Below, one piece after another: positions 3,693-28,785 of a DNA stretch of 32,835 bases. Under the pieces are notes generated by a model that had not been told where the DNA came from, searched no databases, and worked only from the letters and a program-made list of their open reading frames with translations. A program made the position numbers and the translations under genes. This DNA is from Candidatus Nealsonbacteria bacterium (GTDB lineage: Bacteria; Patescibacteriota; Minisyncoccia; Minisyncoccales; MHMH01), in assembly GCA_030700195.1 (NCBI GenBank), contig JAUYKD010000038.1:1-32835 (forward strand), written 5' to 3'. How positions within the stretch are numbered: the first letter of the stretch is position 1; each line of letters starts with the position of its first letter.

Positions 3693-4451
3693 ATGGACTT
3701 AAAAGGAAAAGTGGCAATTATTACCGGAGCTAGAAGGGGAATGGGCAGAACCCATGCCTTGGCTTTGGCTAAAGCTGGAGCAAAAGTGGTGGTTTCAGAT
3801 ATTTCTTTGGAAGATTGTCAGAAAGTGGCCAAAGAGATTGAAAAGCAGAAAGGAGAGGCCTTAGCCGTCAAGTGCGACGTGTCTAAAAAAGAGGAAGTTG
3901 ATAAAATGATTCAGATGGCTGTGAGTAAATGGGGAAGAATAGATATTTTAGTTAATAATGCGGGTATCTGCCAATTTAAGCCATTTTTAGAAATGACCGA
4001 AAAAGAATGGGATTTGACTTTAGATATCAACCTTAAAGGATATTTCTTTTGCGCCCAAGCGGTTGCCAAGCAAATGGTTAAGCAAAAATCAGGGGTCATA
4101 GTTAATATTGCTTCTGTAGCCATGGGCCAACAGGGAATCGGCTTTCCCAATATTGCTCACTACTGCGCTTCCAAGGGCGGGATTGTCGGTTTGACCGAAG
4201 CTTTAGCTATTGAATTGGCTCCATATAATATCAGGGTCAATGCTGTTTCTCCGGGGATGATTGAGACCCCGATGATTAGTTCCGTTAAGCAGGACAAAAA
4301 AACAATAGAAGCTATATTGTCTCGGGTGCCCCTGCGAAGAGTGGGCAGGCCGGAAGAGGTCTCCAACCTTGTTTTATTCTTAGTCTCGGAAGATTCTTCG
4401 TATATAACCGGTTCAACCGTGGTGGTGGATGGTGGCTGGCTGGCCGCTTAA
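3693..4451 (+). CDS. Short-chain dehydrogenase/reductase (FabG-like)
   Basis: ITGARRGMG cofactor motif, NNAG, catalytic Ser and YCASK (YxxxK), 252 aa. Confidence 0.85.
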   Translation: MDLKGKVAIITGARRGMGRTHALALAKAGAKVVVSDISLEDCQKVAKEIEKQKGEALAVKCDVSKKEEVDKMIQMAVSKWGRIDILVNNAGICQFKPFLEMTEKEWDLTLDINLKGYFFCAQAVAKQMVKQKSGVIVNIASVAMGQQGIGFPNIAHYCASKGGIVGLTEALAIELAPYNIRVNAVSPGMIETPMISSVKQDKKTIEAILSRVPLRRVGRPEEVSNLVLFLVSEDSSYITGSTVVVDGGWLAA

Positions 4452-4507
4452 GGGCGATGAGAAATTATTTCTCATCTTAACCTTCTCTCGGTTTCGCCTC
4501 GCTCGGT
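4452..4507 (+). repeat. Family 2 bipartite hairpin element, degenerate second hairpin
   Basis: GGGCGATGAGAAattaTTTCTCATCTTAACCTTC...CTCGGT starts right after the SDR stop codon. It has the same ...CTCGGTGCTTGA end as the copy at 5432-5490. Confidence 0.6.
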
Positions 4508-5273: not shown

Positions 5274-5390
5274 TCTTTTTATCCCTCCATGAAGATTTAT
5301 TATTCGAGTCATTTTGGTTTCATTCCATTGGCGGCCACTCAATTTACAAACTTTGGGATTAAGATAAATTATAATTACTTTCTTTTCGAT

Positions 5391-5490
5391 CTTCATTCCC
5401 TTTATCCCGCAAAGCGGGACTCGGATCGTGGTCGATGAATCTAAAGATTCATCTCCACCTTCGTCCCGCAAAGCGGGACTCGGTGCTTGA
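5391..5490 (+). repeat. Family 2 bipartite hairpin element, two tandem units
   Basis: Unit a is ...TCCCGCaaagCGGGACTCGG. Unit b is GATGAATCTaaAGATTCATCTCCACCTTCGTCCCGCaaagCGGGACTCGGTGCTTGA. The hairpin of unit b is the reverse complement of the one at 14455-14474. Confidence 0.75.
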
Positions 5491-5551
5491 TTTTTTTATT
5501 AAAGCGAATAATATAATTATAGTTGTTTCAAATTTAGAAAAAATAGGGAAA

Positions 5552-6445: not shown

Positions 6446-7300
6446 ATGGAAAAGAAAAGTGTTTTTATTATTTTAGGAACTCTCGTTGGATTGAATATCT
6501 TAGCTTGGTCGGCGGTTTATGAGTTATCTAAAGGAGCCGAGCTCCTTGAGGTGACTTTTTTTGATGTGGGTCAGGGAGACGCCATTTTTATTGAAACGCC
6601 CCAGCGCCATCAGATTCTAATAGACGGTGGTCCTGATTCTGCTGTTTTAGAAAAAATGGGAAAAGAAATGCCGTTCTGGGATAGAACAATTGATTTAATA
6701 GTTTTGACTCATCCGGAGCGCGACCATATGTCCGGTTTGCTTGAGGTTTTAAAAAGATATAAAGTTGAAAACATTTTATGGACAGGAGTTTTAAGGGATA
6801 CGGCCGAATATAAAGAATGGCAGAGGTTAATTCAAAAAGAAGGCGCTAAAATTTATATTGCTCAAGCAGGCCAACGAATTGAAGGAGGCGAGATTTCCTT
6901 TGATATTCTGTATCCGTTTGACAGTTTAGAAGGGCAGGAATTTAAAGATAGCAATGACACTTCGATTATCGCCAAGCTGATTTTCAATGAAACCAGTTTT
7001 TTATTTACCGGTGATGCCACCATGAAAGTTGAAAAAAGATTAATAAACGAAGGGGAAGATATTGATTCGGATGTTTTGAAAGTCGGGCATCATGGAAGCA
7101 AAACTTCTTCGGCCGGAGAATTTATTCAAGCGGTATCTCCCGGCACGGCGGTTATTTCGGTCGGTGGAGACAATAACTACGGCCATCCTTATCCAGAAAC
7201 TTTGGCGATTTTAGAAAAATATGGTATAAAGATTCTTAGAACCGATTTAATAGGCGATATCAAAATAATTTCTGATGGGATCAATTTTATTATTCAATAA
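6446..7300 (+). CDS. ComEC/Rec2-type metallo-beta-lactamase domain protein with N-terminal TM anchor
   Basis: DVGQGDAIFIE, LTHPERDHMSG, GDA, VGHHGS motifs of the ComEC C-terminal MBL domain. One N-terminal TM helix. Confidence 0.8.
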   Translation: MEKKSVFIILGTLVGLNILAWSAVYELSKGAELLEVTFFDVGQGDAIFIETPQRHQILIDGGPDSAVLEKMGKEMPFWDRTIDLIVLTHPERDHMSGLLEVLKRYKVENILWTGVLRDTAEYKEWQRLIQKEGAKIYIAQAGQRIEGGEISFDILYPFDSLEGQEFKDSNDTSIIAKLIFNETSFLFTGDATMKVEKRLINEGEDIDSDVLKVGHHGSKTSSAGEFIQAVSPGTAVISVGGDNNYGHPYPETLAILEKYGIKILRTDLIGDIKIISDGINFIIQ

Positions 7301-7302
7301 CA

Positions 7303-8367
7303 ATGCAATTCCCAATTTTCAAAACTAAAATCAAAGGAATAACCAAAAAATTCAACCTGAACAATCCTGAAGAGAGAAGAAAGTATTTTGAATTGAAAGC
7401 AGGCAAGGAAATTAAAAAGCTTAGGGATTATCTAAAGAAGGGTAATACTTTTATAGTTTATCTTTTAGGAAAGAAGAATTCAGGCAAAGGGACTTACTCC
7501 AAGATGTTTGCTGAAATGGTTGATGCGGAGAAAATTGAGCATTTTTCAATAGGCGATATGATTAGGGTGATTGATAAAGAGCTTCAAGACGGCAAAAAAA
7601 GAAAAGAGCTCTTTAGTTTCTTGGAGAAAAATTATCGGGGGGCTCGTTCAATCAAGCAGATAGAAGAGCTTCTTAATAAAAGAAGCACCTCAGCTCCTCT
7701 TTTGCCCACAGAACTGATTTTAATTTTACTTAAAAGGGAAATCGGCAAAAGGAAAAAGAAAACTATTTTTATCGACGGTTTTCCAAGGGATTTGGACCAG
7801 CTGAATTTTACTTTGTTTTTTCGTGATCTTATCGGCTATCGAGACGACCAGGATGTTTTTGTTTTGCTTGACGTTCCCGAAGCTGTGATTGACGAAAGGA
7901 TAAAGCACCGGAGGGTTTGTCCTGCCTGTCAGACCTCAAGAAACCTAAAGCTTTTGCCGACTTCAAAGGTTGGGTATGACGAAAAGAAAAAGGAATTTTC
8001 TTTAATGTGCGACAATCCAAAGTGCTCTGGCCCGAAAATGGCTCCTAAAGAAGGAGACGACAAGGGGATTAAGCCGATTAAGGCGCGGCTGATGAAGGAC
8101 GAAGAGCTGATTAAGCAGGCCGCTTCTCTCTACGGCATTCCCAAAGTATTTTTAAGAAATTCTGTTCCAAAGAGTTTGGCCGGAGAATATGTTGATGATT
8201 ACGAGCTTACTCCCGAGTACTGCTATCAATGGGACGGTAAAAAGGTTTTGATTAAAGAAAAAAACTGGGTAATTCCGGACGATGAAGGAAGGCCGTCTTA
8301 CAGCTTACTGGCTCCTCCGGTAGTTGTTTCTTTATTCAAGCAACTCGTTGAGATTTTGAATCTTTAA
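7303..8367 (+). CDS. Adenylate-kinase-family protein with long C-terminal extension
   Basis: P-loop GKKNSGKGT, DGFPRDLDQ (compare Adk DGFPRT), Cys4 LID-like CPACQ...CDNPKC. 354 aa versus about 215 for a typical Adk. Confidence 0.6.
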   Translation: MQFPIFKTKIKGITKKFNLNNPEERRKYFELKAGKEIKKLRDYLKKGNTFIVYLLGKKNSGKGTYSKMFAEMVDAEKIEHFSIGDMIRVIDKELQDGKKRKELFSFLEKNYRGARSIKQIEELLNKRSTSAPLLPTELILILLKREIGKRKKKTIFIDGFPRDLDQLNFTLFFRDLIGYRDDQDVFVLLDVPEAVIDERIKHRRVCPACQTSRNLKLLPTSKVGYDEKKKEFSLMCDNPKCSGPKMAPKEGDDKGIKPIKARLMKDEELIKQAASLYGIPKVFLRNSVPKSLAGEYVDDYELTPEYCYQWDGKKVLIKEKNWVIPDDEGRPSYSLLAPPVVVSLFKQLVEILNL

Positions 8368-8442: not shown

Positions 8443-8452
8443 CGAATTATTT

Positions 8453-8546
8453 ACCGAGTCCCGCGTAGCGGCAATGAGATAAATCTCATTTTGAACTTCA
8501 CTGCAGTTCGTTGGTTGAAGGTAGAAGATGAGGTTCGCTCATCGCC
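8453..8546 (-). repeat. Family 2 bipartite hairpin element, two units, between rpmB and tRNA-Pro
   Basis: Read on the minus strand: GGCGATGAGcgaaCCTCATCTTCTACCTTC...then...GCCGCTACGCGGGACTCGGTAAATAATT. The first hairpin contains the rpmB stop codon. Confidence 0.7.
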
Positions 8547-9407: not shown

Positions 9408-9428
9408 ATGCCCACCATTCATCAACTA
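9408..9428 (+). other. Duplicated rpsL 5' end (ATGCCCACCATTCATCAACTA)
   Basis: 18 of 21 nt identical to the real rpsL start 9587-9607 (ATGCCAACCATTCATCAATTG). Encodes MPTIHQL, then runs into the repeat and a stop. Confidence 0.7.
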
Positions 9429-9533
9429 CCGAGTTCCGCGTAGCGGGACGAAGGTGGAAAAGAGGGCGAAGTCCTCTTTGACTTTAACCGAGTCCCGCAT
9501 AGCGGAACGAAGGTTCAAAGAATTTTATTCTTT
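9429..9533 (-). repeat. Family 2 bipartite hairpin element, two units (inverted orientation)
   Basis: CCGAGTTCCGCgtagCGGGACGAAGGT + AAGAGGgcgaagtCCTCTT, then CCGAGTCCCGCatagCGGAACGAAGGT + AAAGAATtttATTCTTT. Confidence 0.75.
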
Positions 9534-12701: not shown

Positions 12702-12902
12702 ATGGATTTAAATGAAATCAAAAAAATAATAGGGGAAGAAGGAGGAAAAATTATTGTTGTTGAGAACAACGAGCCGGTTTTGGTTATTGTTTCGTACAAC
12801 GACTATCAAAATAAAAAGCAAAAGCCGGAGAAAAAGACGGAGAATATTTTACCTAAGGAAGTAGAAGAAGAGGAGCTGAAGATAGAAGACTTGCCTTTCT
12901 AG
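12702..12902 (+). CDS. Hypothetical small acidic protein (66 aa) inserted between fusA and tuf
   Basis: The N-terminal IIVVENNEPVLVIVSYNDYQ is reminiscent of Phd/YefM-type antitoxin N-termini. Low-complexity charged tail. Weak RBS. Confidence 0.4.
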   Translation: MDLNEIKKIIGEEGGKIIVVENNEPVLVIVSYNDYQNKKQKPEKKTENILPKEVEEEELKIEDLPF

Positions 12903-12908
12903 TCTTGA

Positions 12909-13036
12909 CCCCGTTAGAAGTCTTAGCCAGAAAAAATTATTTTAATTTTTTCTGCAAGGCATAACGAGGGTATAACTAAAAACAAAGGTTTATCTGAAAT
13001 TAGCTTTGTGATATATAAGACAGACTTCTAACGGGG
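12909..13036 (+). repeat. Family 1 stem-closed element, long form (copy A, 128 nt)
   Basis: CCCCGTTAGAAGTC...GACTTCTAACGGGG termini, flanked by TTGA/TTGA. The internal sequence is very similar to copies C and D. Confidence 0.8.
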
Positions 13037-13065
13037 TTGACAATTCTTTCCAAGTTTACTAAGAT
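13037..13065 (+). promoter_or_regulatory. Candidate tuf promoter abutting element A
   Basis: TTGACA (13037-13042; its first 4 nt are the direct repeat flanking the element), 17 nt spacer, TAAGAT (13060-13065). Confidence 0.4.
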
Positions 13066-13077
13066 AATAGCTAGTTG

Positions 13078-13130
13078 CCAAGTCCCGCGCAGCGGAACAA
13101 AGGCAAAGATGAGAACGAAATTCTCATCGC
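13078..13130 (-). repeat. Family 2 bipartite hairpin element (inverted orientation)
   Basis: CCAAGTCCCGCgcagCGGAACAAAGGCAAA-GATGAGAAcgaaaTTCTCATCGC. Confidence 0.7.
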
Positions 13131-13163
13131 TTGATAATAATTAATTAATAAGGAAAAAAACAT

Positions 13164-14363
13164 ATGGCCGAGAAAGAAAAGTTCATGAGGGTAAAGCCCC
13201 ACGTTAATGTAGGCACCATTGGTCACGTTGACCATGGAAAAACCACGCTTACCGCCGCTATCCTTCATATTTTAAATCTGAAGGGTTTTAAAGTTTCGGA
13301 GAAATCTGTAGACCAGATTGATTCAGCTCCGGAAGAAAAAGCAAGAGGGCTAACTATTTCTGTTTCTCATTTGGAATACGAAACCGAGAAAAGGCATTAT
13401 GCCCACATTGACTGTCCGGGTCACGCTGACTACATTAAAAATATGATTACCGGGGCGGCTCAAATGGACGGCGCTATTTTGGTAGTTTCAGCTCCAGACG
13501 GACCAATGCCTCAAACCAGAGAGCATATTCTTTTAGCCAGACAAGTTGGTTTGCCTTCAATTATTGTCTTTTTGAACAAATGCGATGCGGTAGACGACCC
13601 GGAAATTATTGACCTGGTTGAATCAGAAGTCAGGGAGCTTTTGAATAAATATAAGTTTCCCGGAGACAAAACTCCGATTATACGAGGTTCAGCCATAAAA
13701 GCGCTTGAAGCTAAATCAGCCGATGATGAAGCAGCTAAGTCAATTATGGATTTGGTTAAGGCTTTGGACGAATCAATTCCTGAACCGGTCAGGGAAATTG
13801 ACAAACCTTTCTTAATGGCTATTGAAGACGTTTTCTCAATTGAGGGTAGAGGAACAGTGGCTACGGGAAGAATAGAAAGGGGAATTGTTAAGTCTAACGA
13901 AGAAGTGGAATTAGTCGGTATTAAACCAACAGTTAAAACCACGGTTGTCAGTCTGGAAATGTTTAATAAGATTCTTGACGAAGGAAGAGCCGGAGACAAC
14001 GTTGGTGTTTTACTCAGAGGTCTAAAGAAAGAAGACGTTGAAAGAGGCCAGGTTTTAGCTAAAACAGGCACGATGACTCCTCACACTGAATTTGAGGGAG
14101 AGATATACGTTTTGACAAAAGAAGAAGGTGGCAGACATACGCCGTTTTTTCCCGGATACAAACCTCAATTTTATATAAGAACCACTGACGTTACGGGAGA
14201 CGTTACGTTGCCCGAAGGCACTGAAATGGTTATGCCCGGAGATACGGTTAATTTGAAAGTTAAGTTGATTGTTCCGGTGGCTTTACAAGAACAGCAAAGG
14301 TTTGCCATTAGAGAAGGAGGCAAGACAGTGGGAGCCGGAGTTGTCACAAAGATCATAAAATAA
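13164..14363 (+). CDS. tuf: Elongation factor Tu
   Basis: [22 protein letters not shown]. 399 aa. Confidence 0.97.
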
Positions 14364-14370
14364 TTTTAAT

Positions 14371-14476
14371 AGCGAGTCCGCCTGAGGCGGACGAAGCTTA
14401 AGATGAAATTTATTTCATCGCCCAGCGAGTCCCGCTTAGCGGGACGAAGCTGGAGATGAATCTTTAGATTCATCGA
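14371..14476 (-). repeat. Family 2 bipartite hairpin element, two units (inverted orientation)
   Basis: AGCGAGTCCGCCtgaGGCGGACGAAGC + GATGAAATttATTTCATCGCC, then AGCGAGTCCCGCttagCGGGACGAAGC + GATGAATCTttAGATTCATCGAC. Confidence 0.8.
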
Positions 14477-14482
14477 CTAAGA

Positions 14483-14824
14483 ATGCCTAAGAAAAAGACA
14501 GAATCAGTTGAAAATGAAGTTAGGCCTAAGATACGCATAAAGCTGAGGGCCTATGACCATAAGGTAATTGATAAGAGCGCTCGCGAGATATGTGAGACGG
14601 CTTTACGTTATGGGGTTGAAATTTCAGGTCCGGTACCTTTGCCAACGGAAATTCAGAAATACACGGTCAATCGGTCAAGTTTTATTCATAAAGATGCCAG
14701 AGAGCAGTTTGAAATGAGAATCCATAAAAGATTAATTGACATTTTAACTCCCAACAGCCGGGTGATAGATGCCTTAATGAACTTAACTCTGCCGGCCGGC
14801 GTAGATATTGAAATCAAAATGTAA
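14483..14824 (+). CDS. rpsJ: 30S ribosomal protein S10
   Basis: [17 protein letters not shown]...; short N-terminal extension. Confidence 0.95.
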
Positions 14825-14828
14825 ACAG

Positions 14829-14851
14829 AAAATCGCCAAAAGGGCGATTTT
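14829..14851 (+). terminator. Hairpin with T run after rpsJ (terminator-like)
   Basis: AAAATCGCC-AAAAG-GGCGATTTT. Confidence 0.5.
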
Positions 14852-14966
14852 GGTAAAATAAAATATGGGATTTGACAGAGTTTGTGTATAATGTTAGATT
14901 TATAGAAGGTTTAATAACATGTTTTTATTTACTTAAATAAGAAACATCAGTTAAATTGCCTCGGAG

Positions 14967-14989
14967 AACTGGGCAATGGCCCAGTTTTT
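14967..14989 (+). promoter_or_regulatory. Hairpin plus T run 8 nt upstream of rplC (attenuator-like)
   Basis: AACTGGGC-AATG-GCCCAGTT followed by TTT. Confidence 0.3.
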
Positions 14990-14996
14990 GATTATA

Positions 14997-15608
14997 ATGG
15001 AAAAATTCATATTAGGTTTAAAATTAGGCATGAGTCAGATGTTTGATGAAAAGGGCAATGTTGTGCCTCTAACTTTAGTTGAAGCGGGTCCATGCCAAGT
15101 TACTCAAATGAAAACTAAAGAAAAAGATGGATACGAGGCTGTTCAAATTGGTTTTAAGCAAATTGAAAAAAAGATTAAGAAATCAATGAAGAAAAAACCG
15201 TTTCGTTACCTTAAAGAGTTCAAAATTGTCGAAGAGGATAAATCCTCTTCTTCACCTTTCGCTGCGGCTCAGGTATTAGACGTTTCTTTATTTAACGAAG
15301 GAGATAAGGTTAAGATTTCAGGTGTTTCTAAAGGAAAAGGATTCCAGGGACCGGTTAAAAGATGGGGGTTTTCAGGCAGAAACGCCACTCACGGAGTTAA
15401 ACATGAACATAGAACATTGGGGTCTGTGGGTACAACCGGCCCTCAAAGAGTTATGAAGGGGAAGAAAATGGCTGGTCGCATGGGTTCAGATAGAGTAACA
15501 GTTAAGAATTTAAAAGTGGTAAAAGTGGATAAAGAAAATAATTTATTAGCTATCGCAGGAGCCGTGCCCGGAAAAAACGGTTCATTATTAGAGATTAGGG
15601 GAAGATGA
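14997..15608 (+). CDS. rplC: 50S ribosomal protein L3
   Basis: MEKFILGLKLGMSQMFDEKGNVVPLTLVEAGPC matches the usual L3 N-terminus. The track start 14976 lies inside the upstream hairpin. Confidence 0.9.
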   Translation: MEKFILGLKLGMSQMFDEKGNVVPLTLVEAGPCQVTQMKTKEKDGYEAVQIGFKQIEKKIKKSMKKKPFRYLKEFKIVEEDKSSSSPFAAAQVLDVSLFNEGDKVKISGVSKGKGFQGPVKRWGFSGRNATHGVKHEHRTLGSVGTTGPQRVMKGKKMAGRMGSDRVTVKNLKVVKVDKENNLLAIAGAVPGKNGSLLEIRGR

Positions 15609-16237
15609 AGACACAAATTTTTGACCAAACCGGAAAAGAAATCGGACAAGCCTTGCTGCCAAAGGAAATTTTCGGTTTAGAATTAAGTTCTGATTTAGTT
15701 TATCAAACAGTTTTTTCTCAAACAGCTAACCGTCGGCAAGGATCGGCTCATACTAAGGACAGAGGAGAAGTTAGCGGTGGAGGAAAAAAGCCTTGGAGGC
15801 AAAAAGGCACTGGTCGGGCTAGACATGGTTCAATTCGTTCACCTCTTTGGAAGGGGGGAGGAGTTACATTTGGTCCGAATAACGCAAAAGTTTTTAAGAA
15901 AAAAATCAATAAAAAATCACAGAGAAAAGCTTTATTGATGGTCTTATCCGCCAAAGCGCAGAAAAATCTGATTGTTTTGGTTGATAAGCTGAAAATCGAG
16001 AAACCGAGAACCAAGGAAATGGGTGAAATCTTAAAAAACCTTCCGTGTAAGGAAGGCAAATGCTTGATTGTTTTGCCGGTTATGGATAAAAACATAATTT
16101 TATCTGCCAGAAATCTCGAGAATGTTAAAGTTATGCAGGCTAAAGATTTGAATGTTTTGGATGCCTTGAGCTGCAAATATATGGTTTTGCCGAAAGAATC
16201 AATAAAAGTTATCAAAGAAACCTTTGTAAGTCGATGA
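15605..16237 (+). CDS. rplD: 50S ribosomal protein L4
   Basis: GGGKKPWRQKGTGRARHGSIRSPLWKGGGVTFGP. ATGA overlap with rplC. Confidence 0.94.
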   Translation: MKTQIFDQTGKEIGQALLPKEIFGLELSSDLVYQTVFSQTANRRQGSAHTKDRGEVSGGGKKPWRQKGTGRARHGSIRSPLWKGGGVTFGPNNAKVFKKKINKKSQRKALLMVLSAKAQKNLIVLVDKLKIEKPRTKEMGEILKNLPCKEGKCLIVLPVMDKNIILSARNLENVKVMQAKDLNVLDALSCKYMVLPKESIKVIKETFVSR

Positions 16238-16284
16238 AAATAAATTTTAATCTTCAACTTCGTTCCGCTATAGCGGAACTCGGT
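16233..16284 (+). repeat. Family 2 bipartite hairpin element
   Basis: GATGAAAATaaATTTTAATCTTCAACTTCGTTCCGCtataGCGGAACTCGGT. The rplD stop TGA is inside the first hairpin. It is followed by AAATAATTATG (rplW start). Confidence 0.75.
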
Positions 16285-16292
16285 AAATAATT

Positions 16293-16736
16293 ATGGCTTT
16301 ATTTGATATTTTTAAAAAAAAGGTTGGGAAAAAAGAAAAGACTGAAAAAAAAGAACAAAAGAAAGAAATTAAAATTGCAGAAAAACCGAAAAAGACTGTT
16401 GTAAAAAAGGAAAAGAAGGAAGCGCCTCTTCCGTCAAAACCGCAGAAAACATCTCCCAATGCTTACTCTATTTTGAAAGGGCCGCATATTACCGAAAAAG
16501 CGACCGAATTGGTTTCAGCCAACCAGTATATTTTTAATGTTTATGTTAAAGCTAACAAGCCGGAGATTAAAAAAACAATAGAAGATATTTATGGAGTTAA
16601 GGTAGTTAGCGTCAATATTGTTAATATTCCAGCTAAAAAAAGAAGATTAGGGAAAATAGAGGGTTGGAGGAAGGGATATAAAAAAGCGATTGTTAAAATA
16701 AAAGCAGGGCAAAAAATAGAAGTTTTACCCCGTTAA
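16293..16736 (+). CDS. rplW: 50S ribosomal protein L23 with about 55-aa Lys-rich N-terminal extension
   Basis: The C-terminal two-thirds (ILKGPHITEKAT...NIVNIPAKKRR...KKAIVKIKAGQKIE) is L23. The N-terminus is KKEKK-type low complexity. Confidence 0.9.
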   Translation: MALFDIFKKKVGKKEKTEKKEQKKEIKIAEKPKKTVVKKEKKEAPLPSKPQKTSPNAYSILKGPHITEKATELVSANQYIFNVYVKANKPEIKKTIEDIYGVKVVSVNIVNIPAKKRRLGKIEGWRKGYKKAIVKIKAGQKIEVLPR

Positions 16737-16783
16737 ATAATTTTACTAAAGTAAAATTGTTGCGAAACAACATTTAACAGGGT
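16727..16783 (+). repeat. Family 1 stem-closed element, short form (three-way junction) spanning rplW stop to rplB start
   Basis: P1 ACCCCGTTAAAT/ATTTAACAGGGT. P2 AATTTTAC-TAAA-GTAAAATT. P3 GTTG-CGAAA-CAAC. The rplW TAA sits in the 5' arm and the rplB GTG in the 3' arm. Confidence 0.7.
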
Positions 16784-17606
16784 GAACCGAGATAATATGT
16801 TAAAGAACTTAGCGACAAAAGAAAACTTCAGATTATTAACCAAAAAGAAGCCGGAAAAAGGTTTGCTCTTAAAATTGCAGCAAAGATCAGGCAGAGGGTC
16901 CAGCGGGAGAATAACAGTTAGACATCAAGGCGGGGGAGCTAAAAAACTTTATCGTCTAGTGGATTTCGGACAGGAAAAATTGGATATCAAGGCAAAAGTT
17001 GCTTCTTTGGAATACGATCCTTACAGATCTTCCTTTATTATGCTTTTAGAATATCAAGGAGGAGATAAGCGCTATCGTTTAGCTCCTCAAGGATTAAAGG
17101 TTGGAGACAGCGTTGTTTGTCAGGAAAAAGCTGATTTAAATATAGGCAATAGAATGAAATTAAGACATATTCCGGTTGGAACTTCTGTTTACAATATTGA
17201 ACTTATTCCCGGTCAGGGCGGAAAATTAGCCAGGGGAGCCGGTACATCGGCCAAGGTTTTGGCGCATGAGGAAAAATACTGTAATATTGAGATGCCTTCG
17301 GGAGAAGTAAGAAGGACGTCTGAAGAGTGTTTTGCTTCTATCGGCGCTCTTTCCAGGGCAGAGCATATTTACACAGTATTGGGAAAAGCGGGTAAAGCGC
17401 GCCATAAAGGAATAAGGCCCAGCGTTAAAGGTTCAGCCATGATTCCTGCAGATCACCCGCATGGAGGAGGAGAAGGGAGAGCCCCAATCGGATTGAAATA
17501 TCCCAAGACCCCTTGGGGAAAACATGCTTTGGGAGTCAAAACAAGAAAAAGGCATCTGACGGATAAATATATAATTCAAAGAAGGTCAAAGAAATCAAAG
17601 AAATAA
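16782..17606 (+). CDS. rplB: 50S ribosomal protein L2
   Basis: GRITVRHQGGGAKKLYR, ...HPHGGGEGR. The start is either GTG 16782 (inside the element arm) or ATG 16797. Confidence 0.93.
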   Translation: MNRDNMLKNLATKENFRLLTKKKPEKGLLLKLQQRSGRGSSGRITVRHQGGGAKKLYRLVDFGQEKLDIKAKVASLEYDPYRSSFIMLLEYQGGDKRYRLAPQGLKVGDSVVCQEKADLNIGNRMKLRHIPVGTSVYNIELIPGQGGKLARGAGTSAKVLAHEEKYCNIEMPSGEVRRTSEECFASIGALSRAEHIYTVLGKAGKARHKGIRPSVKGSAMIPADHPHGGGEGRAPIGLKYPKTPWGKHALGVKTRKRHLTDKYIIQRRSKKSKK

Positions 17607-17645
17607 ATTTCTTTTCTACCTTCGTCCTGCTTCGCAGGACTCGGT
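17598..17645 (+). repeat. Family 2 bipartite hairpin element
   Basis: AAAGAAATaaATTTCTTTTCTACCTTCGTCCTGCttcGCAGGACTCGGT. The rplB stop TAA is in the first hairpin. It is followed by AAATAATTATG (rpsS start), identical to the rplW context. Confidence 0.75.
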
Positions 17646-17653
17646 AAATAATT

Positions 17654-17980
17654 ATGTCAAGAAGTTTAAAAAAAGGTCCATATGTCGATGAAAGGGTATT
17701 GAGAAAGCTGAAGAATTTAAAGCCGGGAGACAAGGCCATTATTAAGACATGGGCAAGAAGCTGCGCTATAAGTCCTGAAATGATTGGGTTTACCTTTGGA
17801 GTTCATAATGGCAAAGAACACGTGCCAGTCCACATTACTGAAGATATGGTCGGACATCGCCTGGGCGAATTTAGTTCAACGACTAAGTTTGGCAGGCATG
17901 GAGGCAGAATGCAGAAAGATATTGAGACGAAAGAAGCTGGTAAAGAAACTCAAAGCATAAAAATCGAACAAAAAGAATGA
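17654..17980 (+). CDS. rpsS: 30S ribosomal protein S19 with C-terminal charged extension
   Basis: MSRSLKKGPYVDE...FGVHNGKEHVPVHITEDMVGHRLGEF. Confidence 0.95.
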   Translation: MSRSLKKGPYVDERVLRKLKNLKPGDKAIIKTWARSCAISPEMIGFTFGVHNGKEHVPVHITEDMVGHRLGEFSSTTKFGRHGGRMQKDIETKEAGKETQSIKIEQKE

Positions 17981-17981
17981 A

Positions 17982-18117
17982 CCCCGTTAGAAGTCTTAGA
18001 ATTTAAAATTTTGATGAGAAAATTTTTAAATTTGAATAAATAAAATATATCAACTATAAAAATCAACTATGTCCAATAATAATTATCATAGAACAGAAAA
18101 AGCAACTTCTAACGGGG
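17982..18117 (+). repeat. Family 1 stem-closed element, long form (copy B, 136 nt, divergent interior)
   Basis: CCCCGTTAGAAGTC...(A)ACTTCTAACGGGG, flanked by TGAA/TGAA. The interior is unrelated to copies A, C and D. Confidence 0.75.
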
Positions 18118-18506
18118 TGAAAAGCAAAGCCAAACTCAACTATTTAAGAATAGCTCCGAGAAAAGTAAGATTGGTGGCCGATATAATTCGCGGCAAATCT
18201 GTTTTTGACGCCAGGAATATTTTGGGCTTTACTATTAAGAAAGCGGCTCATCCCATGTTGAAGCTTTTGAATTCAGCCGTAGCTAATGCCGGGGATATGC
18301 CAGTAGAGAATCTTTTCATATCAAAAGTTGAGGTTAATGAAGGCCCGAAATTAAAAAGGTCCAGGCCCAGAGCTCGGGGCAGAGCATACGAGATACAGAA
18401 AAAGACAAGTCATATTATTATTGTTCTGGATGAAAAAATAACAAAATCTAAAAAACCCAGAAGAAAGGCAAAACCTTCCGCTGGTCTAAAAAAACATGAG
18501 TCATAA
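18117..18506 (+). CDS. rplV: 50S ribosomal protein L22
   Basis: GTG 18117 gives (M)KSKAKLNYLRIAPRKVRLVADIIRGK, the usual spacing to the RKVRLVAD motif. The track ATG 18069 is in-frame but inside element B. Lys-rich C-terminal tail overlaps rpsC. Confidence 0.85.
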   Translation: MKSKAKLNYLRIAPRKVRLVADIIRGKSVFDARNILGFTIKKAAHPMLKLLNSAVANAGDMPVENLFISKVEVNEGPKLKRSRPRARGRAYEIQKKTSHIIIVLDEKITKSKKPRRKAKPSAGLKKHES

Positions 18507-19131
18507 GGTGCATCCAAAATCATTTAGGTTGAGAAATTCCAGCGATTGGGATTCCAGATGGTTGAGCAAGAAAAATATGCCCCAGTATTTGGAGGAGGAT
18601 TTTAAGATTAGGCAATTTCTTGAGAAGAAGCTCAAAGAGTGCGCCATGGAGCGCGTTGAAATTGAAAGATTCTCAGAAAAAATTAATGTTATTATCAATA
18701 GCGGTCGTCCCGGTTTGATTATAGGAAGAGGCGGCAAAGGAGCGGAAGATCTGAAAAAAGAAATAGAAAAATTTTTAAAAGCCAAATCAGAGGTAAGAAT
18801 TGAAATAAGAGAGATTAAAAATGTTTGGGCTTCAGCTTCTTTATCGGCTCAATGGGTGGCTCAGCAGCTGGAAAAGAGAATGCCGCACCGTCGTGTTTTA
18901 AAACAGGCCATGGAGAAAATTATAGCTAATAAAGAAGTAAAGGGAGCTAAAATAGAAGTTTCAGGAAGATTAGGCGGCTCTGAAATCGCCAGAAGAGAAT
19001 GGCTGAAAAAGGGAAGATTGCCATTGCAGACCTTGAGAGCTATAATTGATTACAACCAATCAGAGGCTTTCTGTACGTACGGAGTTATCGGCGTTAAAGT
19101 TTGGATTTATAAAGGTGAAAGATTTGAATAG
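18496..19131 (+). CDS. rpsC: 30S ribosomal protein S3
   Basis: [12 protein letters not shown]...KH domain [13 protein letters not shown].... Confidence 0.95.
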
Positions 19132-19133
19132 CG

Positions 19134-19544
19134 ATGCTTTATCCTAAAAAAGTAAAACATAGAAAATGGCATAGGGGTAAAAGAAGAGGCAAGGGAATAG
19201 AAACCAGAGGAACTGAGCTGAGCTTTGGCAGTTTTGGCTTAAAAGCCCAGGACGGTAAATGGCTAACTGCCCGTCAGATTGAAGCTGCCAGAAGAGCAAT
19301 CATTAGATATTTAAAGAAAGGCGGCAAGCTTTGGATAAGGATTTTTCCGGATAAGCCTGTAACCCAAAAAGGGACAGAAGTGCCGATGGGCGGCGGCAAA
19401 GGAGGAGTTGACCATTATGTTTCTGTGGTTAAGCCGGGTAGAATGCTTTTTGAGTTAGAGGGGATAAAAGAAGAGATGGCCAGAGAAGCGTTTAAGAAAG
19501 CAACTACCAAGTTGCCAATTAAGACTAAATTTGTTAAGAAATGA
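19134..19544 (+). CDS. rplP: 50S ribosomal protein L16
   Basis: [15 protein letters not shown]...[11 protein letters not shown].... Confidence 0.95.
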
Positions 19545-19545
19545 A

Positions 19546-19677
19546 CCCCGTTAGAAGTCCTAGCCCGAAAAAATTTAGATTAAATTTTTTCTGCAAGGCA
19601 ATAACGAGGGAATAACCAATAATAAATGTTTGTCTGAAATTAGCTTTGTGCTATATTAAGATAGACTTCTAACGGGG
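19546..19677 (+). repeat. Family 1 stem-closed element, long form (copy C, 132 nt)
   Basis: CCCCGTTAGAAGTC...GACTTCTAACGGGG, flanked by TGAA/TGAA. The last G is the first base of the rpmC GTG. Confidence 0.8.
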
Positions 19678-19910
19678 TGAAGATACAAGACCTTCGCCAA
19701 AAAACAAAGCAAGAAATCGCAAAACTCCTGGTTGATAGCCGGGAACGTTTAAGATTATTAAGATTTGACCTGGCAGCCGGCAAAGTGAAAAATGTCAGGG
19801 AAATCAGACAGCTTAAAAAAGATATTGCCAGAATATTAACATTGCTAATTGAGCTCCGCGATAGCGGAGCGAAGATAAAGAAGAGAATAAAATTCTCTTC
19901 GCCTAAATAA
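19677..19910 (+). CDS. rpmC: 50S ribosomal protein L29, C-terminal about 18 aa encoded by a family 2 repeat
   Basis: (M)KIQDLRQKTKQEIAKLLVDSRERLRLLRFDLAAGKVKNVREIRQLKKDIARILT is L29. The tail LRDSGAKIKKRIKFSSPK is read from the hairpin element 19851-19903. Confidence 0.9.
   Translation: MKIQDLRQKTKQEIAKLLVDSRERLRLLRFDLAAGKVKNVREIRQLKKDIARILTLLIELRDSGAKIKKRIKFSSPK
19851..19903 (-). repeat. Family 2 bipartite hairpin element inside the rpmC 3' end (inverted orientation)
   Basis: GAGCTCCGCgataGCGGAGCGAAGATAAA-GAAGAGAATaaaATTCTCTTCGCC. Confidence 0.7.
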
Positions 19911-19914
19911 CATG

Positions 19915-20046
19915 CCCCGTTAGAAGTCTTAGCCAGAAAAAATTTGAATTAAATTTTTTCTGCAAGGCAATAACGAGGGTATAACCAATAATAAATATTT
20001 GTCTGAAATTAGTTTTATGCTATATTAAGACAAACTTCTAACGGGG
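19915..20046 (+). repeat. Family 1 stem-closed element, long form (copy D, 132 nt)
   Basis: CCCCGTTAGAAGTC...(A)ACTTCTAACGGGG, flanked by CATG/TATG. The rpsQ ATG starts 2 nt after the element. Confidence 0.8.
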
Positions 20047-20047
20047 T

Positions 20048-20311
20048 ATGCCAAAAAAGAAATTATCCGGAGTTATTACTTCGGTCAAAATGAAAAATAC
20101 AGCGGTTGTTAAGGTAGAGAGGCTCAAGCGGCATCCAAAATACCTTCGGACATATAAGATTCACAAAAAATACAAAGCTCATATTGAAGGAGCTGAATAT
20201 GCCGTGGGAGAAAAGGTTATTATTGAAGAGTGCGTGCCTGTGAGCAAAGATAAAAAGTGGAAAGTTATTAAAAAAGTCGATGACAAAATTTCGTTAGTCA
20301 ATGAAAAATAA
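20048..20311 (+). CDS. rpsQ: 30S ribosomal protein S17
   Basis: KLSGVITSVKMKNTAVVKVERLKRHPKY...EECVPVSKDKKWKV. Confidence 0.93.
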   Translation: MPKKKLSGVITSVKMKNTAVVKVERLKRHPKYLRTYKIHKKYKAHIEGAEYAVGEKVIIEECVPVSKDKKWKVIKKVDDKISLVNEK

Positions 20312-20409
20312 ATTTTTCATTTCCAACTTTACCCTCGTTAGTCAATGAAAAAGGGCGATGAGAACTTTGTTCTCATCTTCACCTTCGTTTTAATAAATTA
20401 AAACTCGGT
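20301..20409 (+). repeat. Family 2 bipartite hairpin elements (one degenerate and one full unit)
   Basis: ATGAAAAATaaATTTTTCATTTCCAACTTT...CTCGTTAGTC, then GGGCGATGAGAACtttGTTCTCATCTTCACCTTCGTTTTAATaaATTAAAACTCGGTC. The rpsQ stop lies in the first hairpin. Confidence 0.7.
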
Positions 20410-20411
20410 CA

Positions 20412-20783
20412 ATGATCCAAACAAGAACAATGTTAAAAGTAGCGGATAACAGCGGGGCAAAAATCCTTCAGTGTTTTCAGATATTGGGAGGCACCAGACA
20501 CAGATACGCAAAGTTGGGAGATATTATTGTCGGCACGGTTAAAAAGGCAGAGCCGAGAAAAGTTGTTAAAAAGCACGCGGTTGTCAGAGCGGTCATTGTC
20601 AGACAAAGAAAGGAATTAAGGCGGCCGGGAGGCACTTATATCAGGTTTGATGATAATGCCTGCGTTATTCTGGAAGAAAAGACAAAAGAGCCAAAGGGTG
20701 GAAGAATTTTCGGTCCAATTGCCAAAGAAGTCAAAGAAAAAGGATTTGATAAAATAGCCGCTATGGCCGAAGAATTAGTGTAG
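20412..20783 (+). CDS. rplN: 50S ribosomal protein L14
   Basis: MIQTRTMLKVADNSGAK...GDIIVGTVKKA.... Confidence 0.96.
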   Translation: MIQTRTMLKVADNSGAKILQCFQILGGTRHRYAKLGDIIVGTVKKAEPRKVVKKHAVVRAVIVRQRKELRRPGGTYIRFDDNACVILEEKTKEPKGGRIFGPIAKEVKEKGFDKIAAMAEELV

Positions 20784-20837
20784 GCGATGAGAATAGAATT
20801 CTCATCTTCAACTTCGTCCCGCTGCGCGGGACTCGTT
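20783..20837 (+). repeat. Family 2 bipartite hairpin element
   Basis: (TA)GGCGATGAGAATagAATTCTCATCTTCAACTTCGTCCCGCtgcGCGGGACTCGTT, followed by CAATG (rplX start). Confidence 0.8.
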
Positions 20838-20839
20838 CA

Positions 20840-21145
20840 ATGAAAATACATAAAGGCGACCAAGTATTAATAATTTCAGGAAAAGACCGAGGCAAAAAAG
20901 GTAAGGTTTTAGACGTGTTTCCGAAAATAAATAAACTGCTTGTTGAAGGGGTAAATATAAGGAAAAAGCACGTCAGACCCAAGAAGGGCGGAGAAAAAGG
21001 TCAGGTGGTGGAAATGCCAAGCCAAATTGCTTCTGCTAATGTTATGCTGCTTTGCTCGAAGTGCAATAAACCGACCAGAATAGGCAGCAAAATCGTTTCA
21101 AATAAAAAATATCGCATTTGTAAAAAATGTAAACAAGAAGTCTAG
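20840..21145 (+). CDS. rplX: 50S ribosomal protein L24 (KOW domain plus C-terminal Cys4 ribbon)
   Basis: MKIHKGDQVLIISGKDRGKKGKV...; CSKC...CKKC. Confidence 0.93.
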   Translation: MKIHKGDQVLIISGKDRGKKGKVLDVFPKINKLLVEGVNIRKKHVRPKKGGEKGQVVEMPSQIASANVMLLCSKCNKPTRIGSKIVSNKKYRICKKCKQEV

Positions 21146-27375: not shown

Positions 27376-27409
27376 ATGATAGCCGAACTCAAAGTTTTTT
27401 TAATAGCTA
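27376..27409 (+). pseudogene. Duplicated 5' end of the membrane-protein gene that starts at 28327
   Basis: ATGATAGCCGAACTCAAAGTTTTTTTAATAGC versus 28327 ATGCTGGCTGAACTCAAAGTTTTTTTAATAGC. It reads MIAELKVFLIA, then runs into the transposase-flanking hairpin and stops. Confidence 0.65.
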
Positions 27410-27418
27410 TAGAATCTA

Positions 27419-28243
27419 CACAGACCCGACCTGTGTTAATCGACCTGTGTTAATCTGTATTAATTTATATTAATTTATGCCTTATAGAAAACAACCATTT
27501 GAAACCGGAAAAATTTACCATGTAGTTACAAGAAGTCTTGATAATAATTTGCTTTTTAAAAATACAAACGATTATTATAGAGGGATATTTTCTATTTATG
27601 AGTTTAATACTACAAAAGCAATTAAAATTAGAGAGCGCAGAAAAGCACGTGTAAAAGAAAAACAGATTATAAAAAACACAGACCCGACCTGTGTTACTAT
27701 AGATGCTATAGATAAGAGGGATTTATTAGTTGAAATTATTGCTTTTTGTTTGATGCCGAATCATATTCATTTATTATTGAGGCAAACCAAAAAAGATGGG
27801 ATAGTCAAATTTATGGCTAAGTTCGGATCGGGTTACGCTAGTTATTTTAATAAAAAATATGGACGAAAGGGATATGTTTTTCAAAATAGATTTCGTTCAG
27901 TAGAAATAAAGAATAACGAACAATTAAAAATAGTTTTTGCATATATCCACATTAATCCAACATCTATTATTATCTCAAATTGGAAAGAGGAAGGCATAAA
28001 GGATATAAATAAAGTGCTTGAATTTATAGAAAACTATAAATGGTCAAGCTATAGCGATTATCTCGGGAAAATTAATTTTCCTTCGGTAAGCAACAGAAAG
28101 TTTATTTTAGAATTATTCGGGAACAAAGAAAAATGTAAAAGATTTGTTGATGCTTGGGTACGATATAAGGCTAAAATTAAGATAGAAGAACTTTTTATAG
28201 AATAGAAATAGAAATACATAGAAATACACAGGTCGGGTCTGTG
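27419..28243 (+). mobile_element. IS200/RAYT-like unit: Y1 transposase gene bracketed by inverted 17-nt hairpin sequences
   Basis: Left CACAGACCCGACCTGTG (27419-27435). Right, its reverse complement CACAGGTCGGGTCTGTG (28227-28243). A third copy lies inside the CDS at 27677-27693. Confidence 0.7.
27477..28205 (+). CDS. HUH Y1 tyrosine transposase, IS200-like / REP-associated (RAYT-like)
   Basis: YHVVTRS..., HUH motif in CLMPNHIHLLL, YVFQNRF, catalytic-Tyr region FAYIHINP. Confidence 0.8.
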   Translation: MPYRKQPFETGKIYHVVTRSLDNNLLFKNTNDYYRGIFSIYEFNTTKAIKIRERRKARVKEKQIIKNTDPTCVTIDAIDKRDLLVEIIAFCLMPNHIHLLLRQTKKDGIVKFMAKFGSGYASYFNKKYGRKGYVFQNRFRSVEIKNNEQLKIVFAYIHINPTSIIISNWKEEGIKDINKVLEFIENYKWSSYSDYLGKINFPSVSNRKFILELFGNKEKCKRFVDAWVRYKAKIKIEELFIE

Positions 28244-28271
28244 ATAGCTGCTGAACTGTGATAGCTGCTGA

Positions 28272-28319
28272 ACAATAGTTGTCACGAAAAATGGAGCAAA
28301 AGTGCTCACTGTGATATAA
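28272..28319 (+). pseudogene. Remnant of a methionine aminopeptidase 3' end
   Basis: Translates TIVVTKNGAKVLTVI*. The first 23 nt (ACAATAGTTGTCACGAAAAATGG) nearly match the intact map at 26864-26886, then the two diverge. Confidence 0.6.
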
Positions 28320-28326
28320 TATAAAA

Positions 28327-28785
28327 ATGCTGGCTGAACTCAAAGTTTTTTTAATAGCCATGTCGCCGATTTTTGAATTAAGAGGGTCAATTCCTATTGC
28401 TTTTGGCGTTTATGGCTTGCCTGCTTGGTCGTCTTTTATTATTTCAATCATCGGCAACTTGGTTCCGGTCGTTTTTATTCTTTTATTGCTTGAAATCGTT
28501 TCTGGTTTTTTGAGCCGCCGTATCTATTTCTTTAACCGTTTTTTTGCTTGGCTGTTTGAAAAAACAAGGAAAAAGCACGCTGCTAAATTTGAAAAGTGGA
28601 AGGAATTGGCTTTGGTTATTTTAGTGGCTATTCCTTTGCCTTTTACCGGAGCTTGGACAGGCTCATTGTGCGCATTTGTCTTCGGCATTCCTTTTAAGAA
28701 AGCGTTTCCCTTAATAGCTATTGGAGTTATTATTGCGGGTATAATAGTTACTTTTACCACTTTAGGAATCATTAATTTCATATGA
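28327..28785 (+). CDS. Small polytopic membrane protein (small multidrug-export-like, COG2426-type)
   Basis: 152 aa, 4 TM. The ELRGSIPIA N-terminal motif is recalled from that family. Assignment tentative. Confidence 0.5.
   Translation: MLAELKVFLIAMSPIFELRGSIPIAFGVYGLPAWSSFIISIIGNLVPVVFILLLLEIVSGFLSRRIYFFNRFFAWLFEKTRKKHAAKFEKWKELALVILVAIPLPFTGAWTGSLCAFVFGIPFKKAFPLIAIGVIIAGIIVTFTTLGIINFI

Follow-up and report, generated by a model that had tools for sequence, protein, structure and literature searches.

The contig of Candidatus Nealsonbacteria analysed here (the window, meaning the whole stretch of 32,835 nt or 33 kb) contains four copies of a short, stem-closed element, named e1 to e4 and all located on the + strand, in a cluster of str/S10/spc ribosomal-protein genes without an L30 gene. 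Comparison with element-free relatives shows that these elements are insertions with a 4-bp target duplication. They are probably non-coding, non-autonomous derivatives of a family of mini-gene transposons, nearly confined to Patescibacteria-labelled genomes, whose full-length members encode a single GIY-YIG nuclease. Patescibacteria have genomes of about 1 Mb with almost no spare DNA, and yet four insertions of the family are present in the most conserved operon of this ultra-small bacterium. The operon was left unbroken because the 4-bp duplication, together with the terminal G of the element, rebuilds the stop codon, start codon or promoter box on both sides. The S3 protein of the window is closest to proteins labelled Candidatus Nealsonbacteria.

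Target-site duplications and empty sites in the ribosomal-protein operon

The termini common to the four copies are CCCCGTTAGAAGTC and RACTTCTAACGGGG, also given as CCCCGTTAGAAGTC and (G/A)ACTTCTAACGGGG, and they form inverted repeats of 13-14 nt that are perfect or carry one mismatch. A search with the 14-mer terminus at up to two mismatches found eight occurrences in the window, arranged as four inverted pairs, where 0.10 were expected and none of 100 shuffled sequences reached eight. The four copies with inverted termini and 4-nt flanking repeats reported in the initial annotation are thus real. The elements are 128-136 nt long and non-coding, with the old start codons opening merely open reading frames (ORFs) of 3-24 codons. 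The interiors of e1, e3 and e4 share 84-92% identity, while e2 retains the family termini and the A/U hairpin at the 5' end, the remaining interior being AT-rich and diverged.

The first copy, e1 (12909..13036, 128 nt), belongs to the main interior class and scores 126 bits with a covariance model. It is located between the stop codon of a small Phd/YefM-like ORF and the tuf promoter, within the -35 box. Its left TTGA repeat lies at 12905..12908, and the right one (13037-13040) constitutes the first four nucleotides of the -35 box TTGACA, so that the right repeat copy regenerates the tuf promoter TTGACA-17-TAAGAT (13037..13065, +), which is also present in the related contigs L117 and L121. 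Copy e2 (17982..18117, 136 nt, 52.7 bits) is located at the rpsS-rplV junction between TGAA repeats (17978-17981 and 18118-18121); here rplV starts with a GTG at 18117, and the former ATG at 17977 has become the start of the 9-codon ORF MNPVRSLRI. The rplP-rpmC junction is occupied by e3 (19546..19677, 132 nt, 138 bits), likewise flanked by TGAA (19542-19545 and 19678-19681); the GTG of rpmC starts at 19677, and the old ATG at 19541 now opens a 24-codon ORF running into the element. The last copy, e4 (19915..20046, 132 nt, 138 bits), separates rpmC from rpsQ and is flanked by CATG (19911-19914) and TATG (20047-20050), with the ATG of rpsQ at 20048. The 4-nt repeats are consequently perfect in three of the four copies and contain one mismatch in e4. 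The left repeat copy preserves the upstream stop codon, and a start codon (GTG or ATG) or the -35 box is rebuilt from the right copy and the terminal G of the element. Although e3 and e4 are, at 92% identity, the most similar two copies in the window, their 4-nt repeats differ, which indicates that the 4-mer originates in the target and not in the element. An element-borne 4-mer, as in restriction-ligation or an IS608-like guide mechanism, is ruled out by the same difference.

Four long contigs of relatives with S3 proteins 81-82% identical to that of the window (L116, L117, L119 and L121) are element-free at all four junctions, and a scan of their operons with the covariance model gives no match. 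The junctions of these relatives match the window sequence once the element and one repeat are removed. Such removal yields AAAGAATGAAAAGCAAAGCC at rpsS-rplV and AAGAAATGAAGATACAAGACC at rplP-rpmC, both of them ATGA overlaps, as had been predicted from the window alone; the rplP-rpmC empty site in L116 reads AAAAAAATGAAGATAGAAG, also an ATGA stop/start overlap. The rpmC-rpsQ empty site in L116 and L117 is taaTATGCCAAAAA (taaTATG), for which the window after restoration gives TAACATGCCAAAAAAG. The region before tuf in the relatives is element-free and reads stop-N2-TTGACA-N17-TAAGAT, the -35 box being intact. The objection that empty sites might not exist therefore fails, and the presence of empty sites in relatives favours insertion over a fixed leader.

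The proposed conversion of ATG starts to GTG also held: the GTGs at 18117 and 19677 align with the ATGs of rplV and rpmC in the relatives, and the protein starts agree, (V)KSKAKL with MQSKAQL for rplV and (V)KIQDLRQ with MKIEELRK for rpmC. An ATG located in frame within e2, at 18069, could serve as an alternative start of rplV. On an identical public contig from run SRR13727534 (L115, 1284-1721, corresponding to window 18069-18506) an automatic gene caller starts rplV at this codon, giving a 145-aa protein with a non-conserved lead of 16 aa. This call is probably a mis-annotation caused by the insertion. Gene callers are thus liable both to mis-start downstream genes, as with rplV from the ATG in e2, and to annotate nuclease ORFs fused to host sequence. 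Translation of rplV and rpmC could proceed by reinitiation or coupling across or through the terminal stem, from an outward promoter borne by the element, or by both, and for rplV alone the ATG at 18069 would be an additional option.

A degenerate 55-nt hairpin (16728..16782, +) was noticed at the rplW-rplB junction. It consists of CCCCGTTAAAT...ATTTAACAGGG followed by TGAA, its left arm comprises the last codons and the stop of rplW, and it gives a weak match to the covariance model (16.5 bits, E 0.1). It is possibly an old, decayed relative of the elements.

The element family in Patescibacteria-labelled genomes

Stretches with the element termini, located at unrelated genes, were found at least 114 times in genomes and at least 120 times in metagenomes, which bears out the expectation of copies elsewhere. 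The reference scan, of one genome per species, required the two termini to be separated by 90-120 nt and gave at least 114 further stretches, and the collection scans were restricted to copies of 116-146 nt and 267-297 nt. The matches listed are almost all labelled Patescibacteria (candidate phyla radiation) and include Nealson-, Staskawicz-, Kaiser-, Uhr-, Taylor-, Jorgensen- and Wildermuthbacteria, Kazan, Sungiibacteriota and others. No matches were found in the viral contigs scanned. Members of the family are bounded by perfect inverted termini of 13-14 bp, CCCCGTTAGAAGT...ACTTCTAACGGGG.

The details of insertion were derived from 121 copies of 100-160 nt among the matches listed, originating from about 100 other genomes. 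Perfect 4-nt flanking repeats of varied sequence surround 88 of these 121 copies. In 70 of them a start codon, called by a simple heuristic on ORFs of at least 60 codons, stands 0 or 2 nt from the element end; an offset of 0 corresponds to GTG made with the last G of the element, and an offset of 2 to an ATG inside a TATG repeat. The GTG arrangement seen at rplV and rpmC recurs in 36 copies in other genomes among the matches listed. The target, read in the orientation of the element, is T-N-N-R: among 79 unique sites, 94% begin with T and 99% have a purine at position 4 (A 73%, G 26%). The commonest targets among listed copies are TGAA, TATG, TTGA and TAAA. Surviving insertions are found at start codons, either in ATGAA (often as an ATGA overlap) or in TATG, in the TTGA of a TTGACA -35 box, and at stop codons.

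All window copies are predicted to fold as RNA with a terminal stem of 13-16 bp (z-scores -4.6 to -8.0), in agreement with the stem proposed earlier. Such a stem may draw the stop and start codons towards each other and may be a target of RNase III. Strong structure in the most conserved operon might be taken as a sign of old fixed operon leaders or regulatory RNAs rather than insertions, but the empty sites, the 4-nt duplications, the presence of the same element at unrelated genes in about 100 genomes and the absence of an Rfam match leave this explanation a negligible chance. The Rfam search of the elements gave no match at gathering score and only chance-level matches at E up to 10. Several other candidates were considered and rejected. 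Integron attC sites have, from a reading of the sequence, their core motifs in a different order; DNA-uptake sequences would leave the duplications unexplained; and for archaeal-type bulge-helix-bulge splicing the flanks should be complementary, whereas they are direct repeats. The terminal GGGG does not qualify as a Shine-Dalgarno sequence, its distance of 0-1 nt to the start codon being too short. The hammerhead-like CTGATGAG in a copy on contig L018 has no Rfam match and is coding sequence.

The interior class of e1, e3 and e4 accounts for 70 listed copies. Its layout consists of an A/U hairpin, the central motif TAACGGGG, a small second hairpin and then TATAWAAAG. In the window the A/U hairpin lies at 19566..19593 (+) in e3, at 12928-12954 in e1 and at 19934-19962 in e4. 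The central motif, whose consensus TAACGGGG is the best-conserved interior block, appears as TAACGAGGG at 19602..19610 (+) in e3, 12962-12970 in e1 and 19971-19979 in e4, and is a third, imperfect repeat of the terminal motif, reading in the sense of the 3' end. A promoter-like TTGTCT-16-TATATT, with TG ahead of the second hexamer, is present near the 3' end at 19630..19657 (+) in e3, at 19999-20026 in e4 and, in weaker form, at 12990-13017 in e1. It faces the downstream gene and is a putative promoter by its match to consensus.

High-scoring copies of the main class that adjoin a start codon are oriented in the same way in 34 of 35 cases, with the 3' end at the start (p = 2e-9). Both interior hairpins covary, although the alignment was fitted to the structure model: 96% of cells are paired against 85% after shuffling, with a score of 0.273 against 0.077, and none of 500 shuffles scored as high. 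In the A/U hairpin all 11 pairs covary across 57 copies from other genomes, and on the sense strand G-U pairs are commoner than A-C mismatches. It is conceivable, though we consider it less probable than not, that main-class copies are kept for an effect in cis, as a portable outward promoter or a reinitiation stem, mobility being only their route of arrival; this would be compatible with their derivation from a nuclease-encoding transposon. The uniform orientation of non-coding copies, the covarying hairpins with their excess of G-U pairs, the promoter-like TTGTCT-16-TGnTATATT and the tolerance of the elements ahead of the essential genes rplV, rpmC and rpsQ all point to such an effect. However, most family members match the -35 and -10 consensus weakly, no Shine-Dalgarno sequence stands at a usable distance from the start, the pair counts come from the structure-fitted alignment, and the relatives do without the element.

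Short forms of 34-100 nt, consisting of little beyond the hairpin, also occur with repeats, as in L031 (TTGA|...|TTGACA). A metagenome contig (L167, 1966-6531) has at least six short copies of 71-218 nt. Several of these are in tandem with TGAA alone between them (GGGG|TGAA|CCCC), as if an existing flank were a preferred target.

MITEs (miniature inverted-repeat transposable elements) of the Correia, RUP, BOX and ERIC type are non-coding sequences of about 100-150 bp with stem-closing inverted termini and target-site duplications, are found at gene boundaries and can contain promoter-like or terminator-like signals. The window copies show all of these features and are MITEs: they are short and non-coding, have inverted termini and a duplication backed by empty sites, and belong to a family found at many unrelated sites. 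The comparison with Correia, RUP and ERIC elements made in the initial annotation is consequently valid as to kind. Membership in the Correia family is not supported, given that the terminal sequence is CCCCGTTAGAAGT and not that of Correia and that the duplication is a 4-bp TNNR rather than TA. In contrast to Correia-type elements, the present family sits precisely on start codons or -35 boxes with its orientation fixed, extends over many Patescibacteria-labelled lineages instead of one genus, and has an identifiable coding partner whose termini, repeats and targets are identical. What is new here is this placement, the coupling of orientation, the radiation-wide breadth and the GIY-YIG partner. 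The literature searched, which leaves out most subscription journals, described neither the element nor its terminus, nor any GIY-YIG gene enclosed by inverted termini and target duplications, and the family is apparently undescribed to date. Insertion polymorphisms of the elements could potentially be used for strain tracking in uncultured lineages.

The GIY-YIG coding partner and a proposed mode of mobility

The search for an autonomous, transposase-bearing copy gave no transposase in the fetched loci, but a 282-nt copy in L018 (6221-6502) has the same termini and TGAA repeats and contains one single ORF. Full-length members of the family are about 280 bp long and consist of one such ORF, encoding a GIY-YIG nuclease of 86-93 aa similar to UPF0213 and SLX1. 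The ORF has no translation signals of its own and reads from a captured host ATG: the host ATG plus AA followed by the left terminus gives ATG AAC CCC GTT AGA AGT (M-N-P-V-R-S). It ends with ...GAC TTC TAA within the right terminus, 4 nt ahead of the regenerated GTG of the host gene. The product of the L018 ORF matches Pfam family PF01541 at 63.6 bits (cut-off 22.6).

A protein search retrieved 956 homologues. Many have 93 aa and start with MNPVRS or MSPVRS, or with short host-derived leads before PVRS, and in many the C terminus is FFFAxDF or FFFAxGF; others are called from an internal MWYVYVL and have 86 aa. In the DNA of two homologues (L123 and L125), one GIY-YIG ORF is enclosed by the same termini and TGAA repeats at unrelated junctions, that of L123 being between a His_biosynth-family gene and a glutamine amidotransferase-family gene. 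Coding and short non-coding copies occur together on one contig in L018, L176, L190, L201 and seven more.

A metagenome scan for copies of 267-297 nt gave at least 120 elements. The 120 listed elements of about 280 nt comprise 20 with an intact ORF, 50 with a disrupted ORF and 50 with other cargo. Among the listed copies, flanks read in the orientation of the ORF are almost always TGAA, TATG or TTGA(CA), with TTCA and CATA absent and TCAA seen once; the listed GIY-containing copies represent 62 unique flanks. The ratio of nonsynonymous to synonymous substitution rates (dN/dS) of the intact ORFs has a median of 0.14 and a maximum of 0.38 (95 pairs), a pattern that indicates purifying selection. 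Residues Y10/Y12, Y23-x-G25, R33, H37, N38 and E57 are invariant or nearly so. The fold was predicted with a pLDDT (predicted local distance difference test) of 79.6, and its top matches are UPF0213 and SLX1. Closest by sequence and predicted fold are UPF0213 proteins BH0048 and EF2693 and the SLX1 domain (1zg2, E 6e-6; 1ywl; SLX1 4xm5, TM, template-modelling score, 0.63).

In the proposed mode of mobility, the nuclease would recognise the stem or cruciform formed by the termini, make 4-nt staggered cuts and mobilise itself and, in trans, the non-coding copies, and host repair and ligation would complete the joining. Ribosomes finishing the nuclease ORF at the TAA in the right terminus may reinitiate on the host gene, and coding copies would be co-oriented with the host gene because capture of its start codon expresses the nuclease.

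The 4-bp duplication and the perfect inverted termini are the normal signature of DDE transposition, and the elements might be classical MITEs moved by a conventional enzyme encoded elsewhere (for example IS1380/piggyBac-like, IS701 or IS5), with the GIY-YIG ORF as one cargo. The other cargo in 50 of the 120 listed copies of about 280 nt and the many bare hairpins of 34-100 nt fit this explanation. However, in 1.66 Mb of fetched element-rich loci no such gene was found between or beside the termini, and the sole protein inside the termini, among listed copies and fetched loci, is the GIY-YIG nuclease, which is under purifying selection. In addition, the nuclease ORF is codon-fitted to the termini, with start capture on the left and the stop codon on the right. 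The same 1.66 Mb contained no terminus pair with matching repeats around a larger single element; in this check solo termini were matched under relaxed settings, and the pairs 300-5000 nt apart with equal flanks were all separate elements sharing a repeat by chance. The piggyBac and IS1380 elements have a T..A 4-bp duplication (TTAA in piggyBac), CCC...GGG ends and precise excision, a resemblance that serves as a lead only; these elements encode a large DDE transposase, none of which was found in the fetched loci. On balance, mobilisation by a conventional transposase appears unlikely.

A much smaller chance is given to a Y1 (HUH) transposase of the IS200/RAYT type moving the elements in the form of single-stranded hairpins, as happens with REP elements. 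The elements do fold as hairpins and insert in a strand-specific orientation relative to the target, features shared with IS200/IS605, PATE and REP/RAYT elements, and a 242-aa Y1_Tnp gene is present in the window (27477-28205), with another near a GIY-YIG copy in L133. Unlike the present family, however, IS200/IS605, PATE and REP/RAYT elements make no target duplication, use a fixed tetranucleotide and have separate end hairpins, whereas the repeats here are variable and derived from the target; moreover, the Y1 gene of the window has its own, unrelated flanking hairpins CACAGACCCGACCTGTG.

Derivation of e1-e4 from a nuclease-encoding transposon remains the preferred reading, against which several points have to be set. 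GIY-YIG enzymes are hydrolytic nucleases and are not known to have strand-transfer activity, so the 4-bp duplication would need host repair or ligation, or another enzyme. With 50 of the 120 listed copies of about 280 nt carrying something else, the nuclease gene might be no more than cargo. Autonomous elements of kilobase size that share these termini may exist at lower frequency, the scans being size-limited. The 33-kb window itself contains no nuclease-coding copy. Selection for nuclease expression does not explain the strict orientation of the non-coding copies, which suggests either that the mechanism is itself oriented or that selection at the level of the host acts on a function in cis. 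The start-codon adjacency comes from the simple heuristic mentioned above, and the relatives, with a best S3 identity of 82%, are too distant to date the insertions.

The family protein also resembles previously known GIY-YIG proteins. The Tyr, Tyr, Arg, His-Asn and Glu positions conserved in UPF0213/YhbQ and SLX1 are retained; SLX1 needs SLX4 and cuts branched DNA, and the literature searched did not describe UPF0213/YhbQ proteins with inverted repeats and duplications at their borders. Free-standing GIY-YIG homing endonuclease genes, such as the seg genes of the T4 type, are likewise small selfish ORFs wedged into operons and dependent on host transcription. They differ in having neither inverted termini nor duplications, in spreading to allelic sites by repair and in possessing a DNA-binding domain (about 200 aa or more), whereas proteins of the present family have 86-93 aa, comprising the catalytic domain and a conserved basic tail, and occupy many unrelated sites with 4-bp duplications.

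As a tentative extension, somewhat short of even probability, these elements may constitute a new superfamily of DNA transposons with an SLX1-like GIY-YIG nuclease of 86-93 aa as the sole protein. At about 280 bp the coding members would be the smallest known autonomous transposable element, living by start-codon capture and by handing ribosomes back through the stop codon in the right terminus, and the non-coding derivatives would act in essential operons as stem-closed RNA modules for reinitiation across a 14-bp helix. If the nuclease is the mobilising enzyme, it would represent a new catalytic class among bacterial transposases. The same extension, if true, would set a new lower size limit for autonomous mobile elements and assign a function to many stand-alone GIY-YIG proteins (UPF0213/YhbQ) that are now annotated merely as nucleases of unknown role.

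L029 contains a second, distinct GIY-YIG gene of small size (7100-7480, minus strand; 40% identical). It lacks the family termini and is flanked by tRNA-like direct repeats, which hints that other stand-alone GIY-YIG genes in such genomes use a different insertion niche.

Other repeats and genes of the window

The window also harbours a second, unrelated family of small intergenic repeats, present in both orientations and built as a two-hairpin unit with the consensus ACCGAGTCCCGCnTAGCGGGACGAAGGTGAAGATGAGAATnnnnTTCTCATCGCC. Copies are located at 4450-4500, 5390-5492, 8443-8488, 9418-9525, 13076-13132, 14368-14482, 16244-16286, 17606-17648, 20349-20392 and 20780-20840. They fill the spacers tuf-rpsJ (twice), rplD-rplW, rplB-rpsS, rpsQ-rplN and rplN-rplX, which measure 0-5 nt in the relatives. 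A further copy (19848-19908) lies in frame at the 3' end of rpmC; the L29 protein has 77 aa in the window, compared with 58-61 aa in relatives, and the repeat appears to have lengthened it by about 17 residues.

The IS200-like Y1 transposase gene mentioned above (PF01797) is part of a region at 27376-28361. Inverted repeats of 43 nt, which include the hairpin CACAGACCCGACCTGTG, stand on either side of it (27419-27461 and 28201-28243). A second copy of the first 35 nt (28327-28361) of the small-multidrug-export gene that lies downstream is present upstream, at 27376-27410.

The ORF preceding e1, located between fusA and tuf (12702-12902), encodes 66 aa with a weak match to Phd/YefM antitoxins (21.9 bits, below cut-off). 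The position of this small ORF is conserved, with products of 66 and 73 aa in L117 and L121, respectively.

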